Virus record (IMG/VR): IMGVR_UViG_2609460219_000002
Reading direction: 5' to 3' (one strand)
Length of the DNA stretch: 6,615 bases
Source: a virus
Taxonomy: Duplodnaviria; Heunggongvirae; Uroviricota; Caudoviricetes
Shown: positions 32-6,615 of the stretch, piece after piece
Layout of the letters: every line of letters begins with the position of its first letter
How positions within the stretch are numbered: position 1 is the first letter of the stretch
Position numbers and translations under genes: made by a program
Notes under the pieces: model-generated
The model's input: the letters and a program-made list of their open reading frames with translations, nothing else
Database searches by the model: none
Told to the model about the DNA's origin: nothing

Positions 32-92
32 TCGCTTTGTAACGGAGTAGACGAAAGTGATCGCGCTACCCGGATATTATCGTGAGGATGCG

Positions 93-2281: not shown

Positions 2282-2650
2282 TCAGGCGGCCTTGATAGTC
2301 ATATCATCTGAATCAAATATTCCTGATGTATCGATATCGGTAATTCTTATTCCTTCGCTACCATCCATTGGAGGCCATCCTTCCTGACCATTTCCATCAT
2401 TCCAGTCGAACTCACACACAACACCATATGCATTTAAGTCGCTTGAAATTGCTATAAGCAGAGCATGTTGCGCCAGCATGATTAATACAGCATTTAATGC
2501 AGAGCCGTGTTTATTGAGTCGGTATTCAGAGTCTGACCAGAAATTATTAATCTGGTGAAGTTTTTCCTCTGTCATTAAGTCATGGTCGATTTCAATTTCT
2601 ATTGATGCTTTCCAGTCGTAATCAATGATGTATTTTTTGATGTTTGACAT
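2282..2650 (-). CDS. ea10: Ea10 early-region protein, 122 aa
   Basis: Translation MSNIKKYIIDYDWKASIEIEIDHD...DDMTIKAA matches lambda Ea10 with a few substitutions. Confidence 0.85.
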   Translation of the reverse strand: MSNIKKYIIDYDWKASIEIEIDHDLMTEEKLHQINNFWSDSEYRLNKHGSALNAVLIMLAQHALLIAISSDLNAYGVVCEFDWNDGNGQEGWPPMDGSEGIRITDIDTSGIFDSDDMTIKAA

Positions 2651-2666
2651 CTGTTCATATCCTCAC

Positions 2667-2695
2667 AGAAAAAATCGCCCTCACATTAGAGGGCA
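2667..2695 (-). terminator. Putative intrinsic terminator between the ral remnant and ea10 (tL2-like position)
   Basis: Minus-strand RNA would form GCCCUC-UAAUGU-GAGGGC (6-bp GC-rich stem) immediately followed by GAUUUUUUCUG. Sits about 17 nt upstream of the ea10 start. Inferred from sequence only. Confidence 0.45.
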
Positions 2696-2830
2696 AAGAA
2701 GATTTCCAATAATCAGAACAAGTCGGCTCCTGTTTAGTTACGAGCGACATTGCTCCGTGTATTCACTCGTTGGAATGAATGCAGAGTGCAGTATTTATTC
2801 TGTTGTTTATGCCAAAAATAAAGGCCACCA

Positions 2831-2928
2831 TCAGGCAGCCTTGTTATTCTGTTTACCAAGTTATCTGGCAATCATTGCCGTCGTTCGTATTGCCCACACC
2901 ATTGATTCTTATCAGTAGTCGTAGTCAT
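2831..2928 (-). pseudogene. ral: ral (restriction alleviation) remnant, internally deleted and prematurely terminated
   Basis: From ATG at 2928..2926 the frame reads MTTTTDKNQWCGQYERRQ-stop. The first 13 residues match the lambda Ral N-terminus. Ral C-terminal residues (AIRTTAMIAR, then a stop, then LGKQNNKAA-stop) are encoded directly downstream in a different frame. This implies an internal deletion that is not a multiple of 3, plus a nonsense change. Confidence 0.6.
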
Positions 2929-2981
2929 ATGGATAGTCCTGGTATTGTTCCATCACATCCTGAGGATGCTCTTCGAACTCT

Positions 2982-3335
2982 TCAAATTCTTCTTCCATAT
3001 ACCCCCCCCCAAATAAGTGGTTTGCTGCCTAATTTCATTTTCTGGCGACCAACACAAGTCACACCCATTTCACTGCGTGGCTTGCTGTACCATGTGCGCT
3101 GATTCTTGCGCTCAATACGTTGCAGGTTGCTTTCAATCTGTTCGTGGTATTCAGCCAGCACCGTAAGGTCTATCGGATTCAGTGCGCTTTCTACTCGTGA
3201 TTTCGGTTTGCGATTCAGCGAGAGAATAGGGCGGTTAACTGGTTTTGCGCTTACCCCAACCAACAGGGGATTTGCTGCTTTCCATTGAGCCTGTTTCTCT
3301 GCGCGACGTTCGCGGCGGCGTGTTTGTGCATCCAT
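2982..3335 (-). CDS. N: N transcription antiterminator, 117 aa, with divergent and extended C-terminus
   Basis: Internal Met of the 135-aa track ORF gives MDAQTRRRERRAEKQAQWKAANPLLVGVSAKPVNRPILSLNRKPKSRVESALNPIDLTVLAEYH..., the lambda N arginine-rich motif and N-terminal two-thirds. AGGAGA ribosome-binding site precedes the ATG. The C-terminus (…GSKPLIWGGVYGRRI) differs from lambda N and is read through a G9 tract. Confidence 0.9.
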   Translation of the reverse strand: MDAQTRRRERRAEKQAQWKAANPLLVGVSAKPVNRPILSLNRKPKSRVESALNPIDLTVLAEYHEQIESNLQRIERKNQRTWYSKPRSEMGVTCVGRQKMKLGSKPLIWGGVYGRRI

Positions 3336-5437: not shown

Positions 5438-6338
5438 ATGACAAATACAGCAAAAATACTCAACTTCTGCAGAGGTAACTTTGCCAAACAGGAGCGTAAT
5501 GTGGCAGATCTCGATGATGGTTACGTCAGACTATCAAATATGCTGCTTGAGGCTTATTCAGGCGCAGATCTGACCAAGCGACAGTTTAAAGTGCTGCTTG
5601 CCATTCTGCGTAAAACCTATGGGTGGAATAAACCAATGGACAGAATCACCGATTCTCAACTTAGCGAGATTACAAAGTTACCCGTCAAACGGTGCAATGA
5701 AGCCAAGTTAGAACTCGTCAGAATGAATATTATCAAGCAACAATGCGGCATGTTTGGACCAAATAAAAACATCTCAGAATGGTGCATCCCTCAAAACGAG
5801 GGAAAATCCCCTAAAACGAGGGATAAAACATCCCTCAAATTGGGGGATTGCTATCCCTCAAAACAAGGGGGACACAAAAGACACTAATACAAAAGAAAAA
5901 AGAAAAGATTATTCGTCAGAGAATTCTGGCGAATCCTCTGACCAGCCAGAAAACGATCTTTCTGTGGTGAAACCGGATGCTGCAATTCAGAGCGGCAGCA
6001 AGTGGGGGACAGCAGAAGACCTGACCGCCGCAGAGTGGATGTTTGACATGGTGAAGACCATCGCGCCATCAGCCAGAAAACCGAATTTTGCAGGGTGGGC
6101 TAACGATATCCGCCTGATGCGTGAACGTGACGGACGTAACCACCGCGACATGTGCGTGCTGTTCCGCTGGGCATGCCAGGACAACTTCTGGTCCGGTAAC
6201 GTGCTTAGCCCGGCCAAACTCCGCGACAAGTGGACCCAGCTCGAAATCAACCGTAACAAGCAACAGGCAGTCGTGACAGCCAGCAAACCAAAACTCGACC
6301 TGACAAACACAGACTGGATTTACGGGGTGGATCTATGA
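5438..6338 (+). pseudogene. O: Replication initiator O, disrupted as sequenced by a +1 frameshift inside ori iteron 4
   Basis: N-terminal frame (5438-5887, MTNTAKILNF...YPSKQG then GHKRH-stop) and C-terminal frame (...DTKDTNTKEKRKDYSSENSGESSDQPENDL...DWIYGVDL, ending 6338) both match lambda O but differ by +1. Total span is 901 nt rather than a multiple of 3. The shift maps to CAAAACAAGGGGGAC (about 5864-5870). Confidence 0.75.
5786..5920. repeat. ori-lambda: four O-binding iterons plus adjacent AT-rich unwinding region
   Basis: Four inverted-repeat iterons: ATCCCTCAAAACGAGGGA (5786-5803), ATCCCCTAAAACGAGGGA (5806-5823), ATCCCTCAAATTGGGGGA (5830-5847), ATCCCTCAAAACAAGGGGGA (5853-5872). They are followed by AT-rich ACAAAAGACACTAATACAAAAGAAAAAAGAAAAGATTATT. 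Confidence 0.85.
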
Positions 6339-6615
6339 AAAACATCGCCGCACAGGTGGTTAACTTTGACCGTGAGCAGATGCGTCGGATCGCCAACAAC
6401 ATGCCGGAACAGTACGACGAAAAGCCGCAGGTACAGCAGGTAGCGCAGATCATCAACGGTGTGTTCAGCCAGTTACTGGCAACTTTCCCGGCGAGTCTGG
6501 CTAACCGTGACCAGAACGAACTGAACGAAATCCGCCGCCAGTGGGTTCTGGCTTTCCGGGAAAACGGGATCACCACAATGGAACAGGTTAACGCAGGAAT
6601 GCGCGTAGCCCGTCG
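6335..6615 (+). CDS. P: Replication protein P (DnaB helicase loader), N-terminal part; continues beyond the window
   Basis: ATG at 6335 overlaps the O stop (ATGA). Translation MKNIAAQVVNFDREQMRRIANNMPEQYDEKPQVQQVAQIINGVFSQLLATFPASLANRDQNELNEIRRQWVLAFRENGITTMEQVNAGMRVAR matches the lambda P N-terminus. Not in the ORF track because no stop falls inside the window. Confidence 0.9.
   Translation, partial: MKNIAAQVVNFDREQMRRIANNMPEQYDEKPQVQQVAQIINGVFSQLLATFPASLANRDQNELNEIRRQWVLAFRENGITTMEQVNAGMRVAR

Follow-up and report, generated by a model that had tools for sequence, protein, structure and literature searches.

A private extra base in replication gene O of an Escherichia coli CS03 prophage contig is probably a consensus error

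The locus described here raises the question of whether a frameshifted replication initiator gene O marks a defective lambdoid prophage, or whether the base that breaks the gene exists only in the deposited sequence. The window, a stretch of 6,615 bp analysed at its full length, is the early region of a lambdoid prophage. Its minus strand encodes exo, bet, gam, kil, cIII, ea10, a ral remnant, N, hex and a 434-type cI, and its plus strand a 434-type cro, cII, O and the start of P. Over its whole length the window shared 97.5-97.9% identity with many E. coli prophages and with lambda imm434 and phage 434 (OL657226), the last standing at 97.5%, while a 1-kb O query matched lambda (J02459) and lambda imm434 (OM418626) with 97.7% identity. 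The immunity region is of the 434 type, with a cI of 210 aa and a cro of 71 aa, and the four iterons, the AT-rich region and the O-P overlap are all as in lambda and 434. As a replication module the region is of the usual lambda type, with an origin inside O and P next in order. In contrast to lambda and 434, the window has one extra A in iteron 4, and O as assembled is split into 149 aa and a remainder in the +1 frame. In comparison with lambda imm434 and 434, it also lacks sieB and most of ral (2650-3035). The same compact ral-remnant/N arrangement was found in a prophage of E. coli DLL7555 (L004), and the loss of sieB and most of ral is thus a natural mosaic variant rather than a deletion specific to this contig.

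The lambda-type O gene occupies 5438-6338 (901 nt), as judged from the list of open reading frames and the alignments. Both agree with a first-pass annotation of this DNA, which had described a +1 switch within O, an upstream stop at 5885-5887 and a remainder running to 6338. Alignment to lambda O/ori, which had been proposed there as a check, located one extra A within ori iteron 4; against phage 434 and lambda imm434 there was exactly one surplus base, these phages reading CAAAAC-AGGGGG and the window CAAAACAAGGGGG. The 149-aa product consists of the N-terminal origin-binding domain followed by four out-of-frame residues (GHKR-H) and the TAA at 5885-5887. Pfam PF04492 (Phage_rep_O) was matched at residues 22-115 of this piece (E = 9e-36; 122.7 bits against a cut-off of 28.7). 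The domain therefore lies wholly within the upstream piece and the C-terminal half is lost from the product, in keeping with the earlier description of an O cut down to its DNA-binding domain. Downstream of the shift the +1 frame is open as far as the normal O stop, carrying ...GDTKDTNTKEKRK... and closing with ...DWIYGVDL* at 6338. A continuous frame of about 299 aa joining the DNA-binding and C-terminal P-interacting halves is absent from the sequence as assembled and appears once one A is removed, when O is computed to be 900 nt and a continuous 299 aa. A sequence search of the PDB found no solved structure related to the repaired O. The coordinates of these and the other features discussed are collected in Table 1.

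Table 1. Features of the replication region and private lesions of the window
Feature	Position	Strand	Remarks
O frame as assembled	5438..5887	+	149 aa, ends ...CYPSKQGGHKRH*; from the list of open reading frames
Extra base (AA where all relatives have a single A)	5865..5866	+	shifts O by +1; from alignments
Rest of O (linker and C-terminal P-interacting half)	5868..6338	+	+1 frame; from the list of open reading frames
ori iteron 1, ATCCCTCAAAACGAGGGA	5786..5803		mapped from phage 434 gpO sites (OL657226)
ori iteron 2, ATCCCCTAAAACGAGGGA	5806..5823		mapped from phage 434 gpO sites (OL657226)
ori iteron 3, ATCCCTCAAATTGGGGGA	5830..5847		mapped from phage 434 gpO sites (OL657226)
ori iteron 4 (ITN4), ATCCCTCAAAACAAGGGGG	5853..5871		19 bp against 18 bp in relatives; 434 gpO sites and alignment
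AT-rich origin region	5872..5915		44 bp, 75% A+T
Start of P (helicase loader)	6335..6615	+	runs off the contig end; PF06992 (Phage_lambda_P) on the called gene
1-bp deletion (CC to C; GCGCC to GCGC) in orf60a/DUF1317	66..67	-	gene start near 102
Private C9 run (two extra bases and three substitutions)	3002..3010	-	3' end of N; CTCACCTC in relatives

The origin itself is otherwise conventional, with four dyad-symmetric iterons of about 18 bp inside O and the AT-rich stretch next to them. The first three iterons are 18 bp long, while the fourth is lengthened by the insertion, as had been proposed, although to 19 bp and not to the "about 20 bp" given at the time. The surplus A sits between the two half-sites, at the centre of iteron 4. 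P lies directly downstream, the O stop overlapping the P start in an ATGA at 6335-6338.

Related loci were then fetched from viral and genome collections, and 133 were compared with the window for private states, a state being called private when seen in none of them. At the insertion site, 108 of 108 related loci have one base fewer within 5865-5872. At least 80% of a 65-nt query over the site was covered by about 1,115 records from complete E. coli genomes, among which the best full-length matches reached 98.5% (64 of 65 bases, with one gap) and none 100%. The full-length phage matches listed all span 1,000 bases, against 1,001 in the window, and the insertion-bearing iteron, searched as an exact pattern in genome, viral and metagenome contigs, gave no match. 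Judged by these sequence comparisons, the extra A is private to one assembly. It is also the sole private state in O, where private substitutions numbered zero. Four residues that we take to be differences from lambda O (G11C, G17K, A30V and G103C) were considered as private changes and rejected, since none is private among the related loci. The A at 5887, which changes ATT to AAT (Ile to Asn) in the O frame, is common to 13 of the 108 loci and, on this distribution among relatives, is a natural polymorphism. As the TAA at 5885-5887 makes use of this polymorphic A, the stop arises solely through the frameshift.

O is not invariably intact elsewhere. Of 90 related loci spanning the complete gene, 86 encode the intact 299-aa protein and the remaining four are broken at other positions (L015, L063, L051 and L052, with frames of 194, 194, 225 and 221 aa). 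L015 and L063 carry the identical lesion, which suggests either an inherited, real frameshift or one strain sequenced twice. A split O had seemed to occur in phage 434 as well, whose record lists 'replication initiation protein (x2)'; this candidate was rejected, the two features being O and P and the O of 434 being intact.

The window proved to be identical to an entire contig, JNOG01000115.1 (6,615 bp), of the E. coli CS03 assembly GCA_000740625.1. This contig was the one hit to an exact look-up of the extended N protein, whereas neither the 149-aa O product nor the exo product gave a hit in the assembly index. This draft was produced from Ion Torrent reads of about 140 nt by de novo assembly in MIRA, initially from 45% of the reads, and it holds 4,829 annotated genes against 4,228 predicted coding sequences (PMC4256178). 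The source thus consists of flow-based reads without polishing by another platform (PMC4256178). After subtraction of about 100 RNA genes we estimate that some 500 genes of CS03, about 10%, are non-coding or pseudogenes. In another Ion Torrent assembly, curation of false homopolymer frameshifts brought the number of pseudogenes down from more than 400 to 64 (PMC3917457). The present case resembles such false frameshifts in its platform, in a one-base change of run length beside a homopolymer, and in the occurrence of several broken conserved genes close together within a genome that has an excess of non-coding genes. It differs from them in that the affected run is just one base long (A to AA). 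The over-calling of a single A as two is unlike the classic miscall of a long homopolymer.

Other private lesions were found in the same contig. The conserved gene orf60a/DUF1317 is frameshifted after ...HDNIRV by the deletion at 66/67, which is absent from all 31 related loci; in complete E. coli genomes the best full-length match over this site was 98.5%, with 65 bases against 66, and none of the matches carries the deletion. At the 3' end of N, the C9 run turns the stop TGA into TGG and extends the protein by 10 aa (…PLIWGGVYGRRI). Among complete E. coli genomes, full-length matches reached 94.5% at best here and none carries the run, the appearance of which suggests an assembly artefact. 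After 2668 there is a further private deletion, of 2 bp (AT, 2668-2669), in the intergenic sequence just before an A6 run upstream of ea10, where each of the 64 related loci covering the site has one or two extra bases. Small indels at 1871, 3465 and 3487 were also considered as errors and were rejected, as they are common to other loci and so are natural variants. The insertion in O is a private indel that lengthens a run of identical bases, from A to AA beside G5, and has similar lesions nearby (CC to C, and the C9 run). The private lesions hit two or three of 14 genes, where about 1.2 would be expected if about 10% of genes were broken by error, a number that fits without any need for biology.

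We infer from the platform, the private base, the neighbouring private lesions and the freedom of O from other decay that the extra A is an indel error in the deposited consensus and does not belong to the DNA of the organism, a reading to which we give a probability of roughly 0.7. A single A would have been over-called as AA just before the G5 run in the Ion Torrent/MIRA draft, and the real prophage would encode a normal 299-aa O and an iteron 4 of 18 bp. The estimate sets the roughly 6-10% of genes broken by error in this assembly against the 3-4% at most of O genes broken elsewhere. The four real O frameshifts among the 90 loci count against an error. A sequencing error next to the G5 run had been mentioned in the first-pass annotation as an alternative, and the platform, the uniqueness of the base among more than 1,000 loci and the other private lesions now make it the likelier explanation. 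The preference expressed there for a real mutation in a defective prophage is, on the same evidence of an Ion Torrent/MIRA draft, a unique base and further lesions, not the best supported.

It is nevertheless possible, if rather unlikely, that the extra A is a real and recent 1-bp insertion that truncates O to its 149-aa DNA-binding domain and leaves it null for initiation, as one of several lesions in a decaying prophage. Iteron 4 would then be longer by 1 bp between its half-sites, and the element could not replicate from its own origin unless a co-resident lambdoid phage of the same O specificity supplied O. The frames and the stop are indeed as described in the assembled sequence, natural disruptions of O occur at the frequency noted above, and the contig has other inactivating private changes, orf60a being frameshifted and N having lost its stop codon. 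Its private coding substitutions, moreover, are mostly nonsynonymous (6 to 2, the C9 run left out). The nonsynonymous changes include exo M140T, ea10 V51A, cro A70S, cII V2F and P M8V (at 355, 2499, 4984, 5115 and 6356), and the synonymous ones are just two, at bet L212 and hex G35. Substitutions are rare among Ion Torrent errors, and flow-based errors would not produce such a pattern. The excess also fits relaxed selection or simply young mutations, and the sites are too few to separate error from decay.

Against a real insertion, however, stands the absence of further decay in O downstream of the shift, together with the intact state of cI, cro, cII, exo, bet, gam, kil, cIII and ea10 and the confinement of the variant to one assembly. 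With about 10% of genes non-coding in an Ion Torrent/MIRA source, frameshifts due to error would also be commoner than real ones, which affect no more than about 3-4% of O genes. A consensus error thus remains the preferred reading.

Were the base real, O would be null. An O dimer binds each iteron through its N-terminal domain, while the C-terminal part recruits P-DnaB. Amber mutations of lambda O are null with 160, 205 or even 294 residues remaining, and deletion of ITN4 (ori98) abolishes origin function and complementation by O (PMC6022878). Among the classical O-null and ori- alleles (Oam317, Oam8 and Oam205; ori98/r98 and ti12), the lesion would most resemble an O amber leaving about 150 residues, and like ori98 and ti12 it touches ITN4 (PMC6022878). 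The classical alleles, however, were made in the laboratory and comprise nonsense mutations, in-frame deletions and a point mutation, whereas the putative lesion here would be a frameshift hitting protein and site together. With a base added between them, the half-sites of iteron 4 would be respaced by 1 bp, and this may in turn affect the binding of O. The earlier account of what a real insertion would do is thus sound in the light of the O ambers and ori98 (PMC6022878), and is already textbook knowledge. Truncations of this gene and mutations of its origin have been studied for decades, and a real insertion would add one more null allele to them.

Ribosomal frameshifting had also been put forward, and we considered whether, with the base real, full-length O might still be made by +1 slippage between the insertion and the stop. 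The shifted stretch, given as six codons, reads CAA GGG GGA CAC AAA AGA CAC TAA, and it holds two sites at which the P-site tRNA could re-pair at +1, GGG_G and AAA_AGA. A slip at GGG_G (5867-5870) was computed to restore the exact wild-type O of 299 aa, and one at AAA_A before AGA, a rare codon in E. coli, a protein of 299 aa with two substitutions. The two-frame arrangement is, however, unconserved. It was found in none of the 108 loci, the roughly 1,115 matches in E. coli genomes included no 100% match, and the three contig collections scanned held no exact match to the insertion-bearing sequence. Every relative examined encodes O in a single frame, and the comparison thus lends no support to frameshifting and gives no evidence of selection for it. 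Unprogrammed slippage, furthermore, usually runs well below 1%, whereas the origin requires a stoichiometric supply of the unstable O protein, in the form of four dimers. We therefore regard production of full-length O by slippage as exceedingly improbable. Scarcely more credible is a combination in which a real extra A disables the initiator and respaces its iteron-4 half-sites while slippage at GGG_G yields a leaky, replication-attenuated prophage with an intact 434-type immunity region.

The locus is not novel under either main reading, being a consensus error in a well-known gene or else an ordinary null allele. If the base is an error, it illustrates how flow-based drafts can give familiar genes the false appearance of pseudogenes, and why the platform behind a private frameshift deserves a check before the prophage is declared defective.

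The search for related loci also returned near-identical lambda O/ori sequences on short or low-coverage contigs in assemblies labelled as Chromatium, Bradyrhizobium, Shewanella, Pseudomonas, Neobacillus, Mycobacterium, Helicobacter, Lactobacillus and others (L087-L098, L103, L106, L111-L114, L117, L118, L122, L123 and L128-L134). The presence of lambda O/ori in those assemblies is most simply explained by contamination with lambda DNA from a spike-in or vector.
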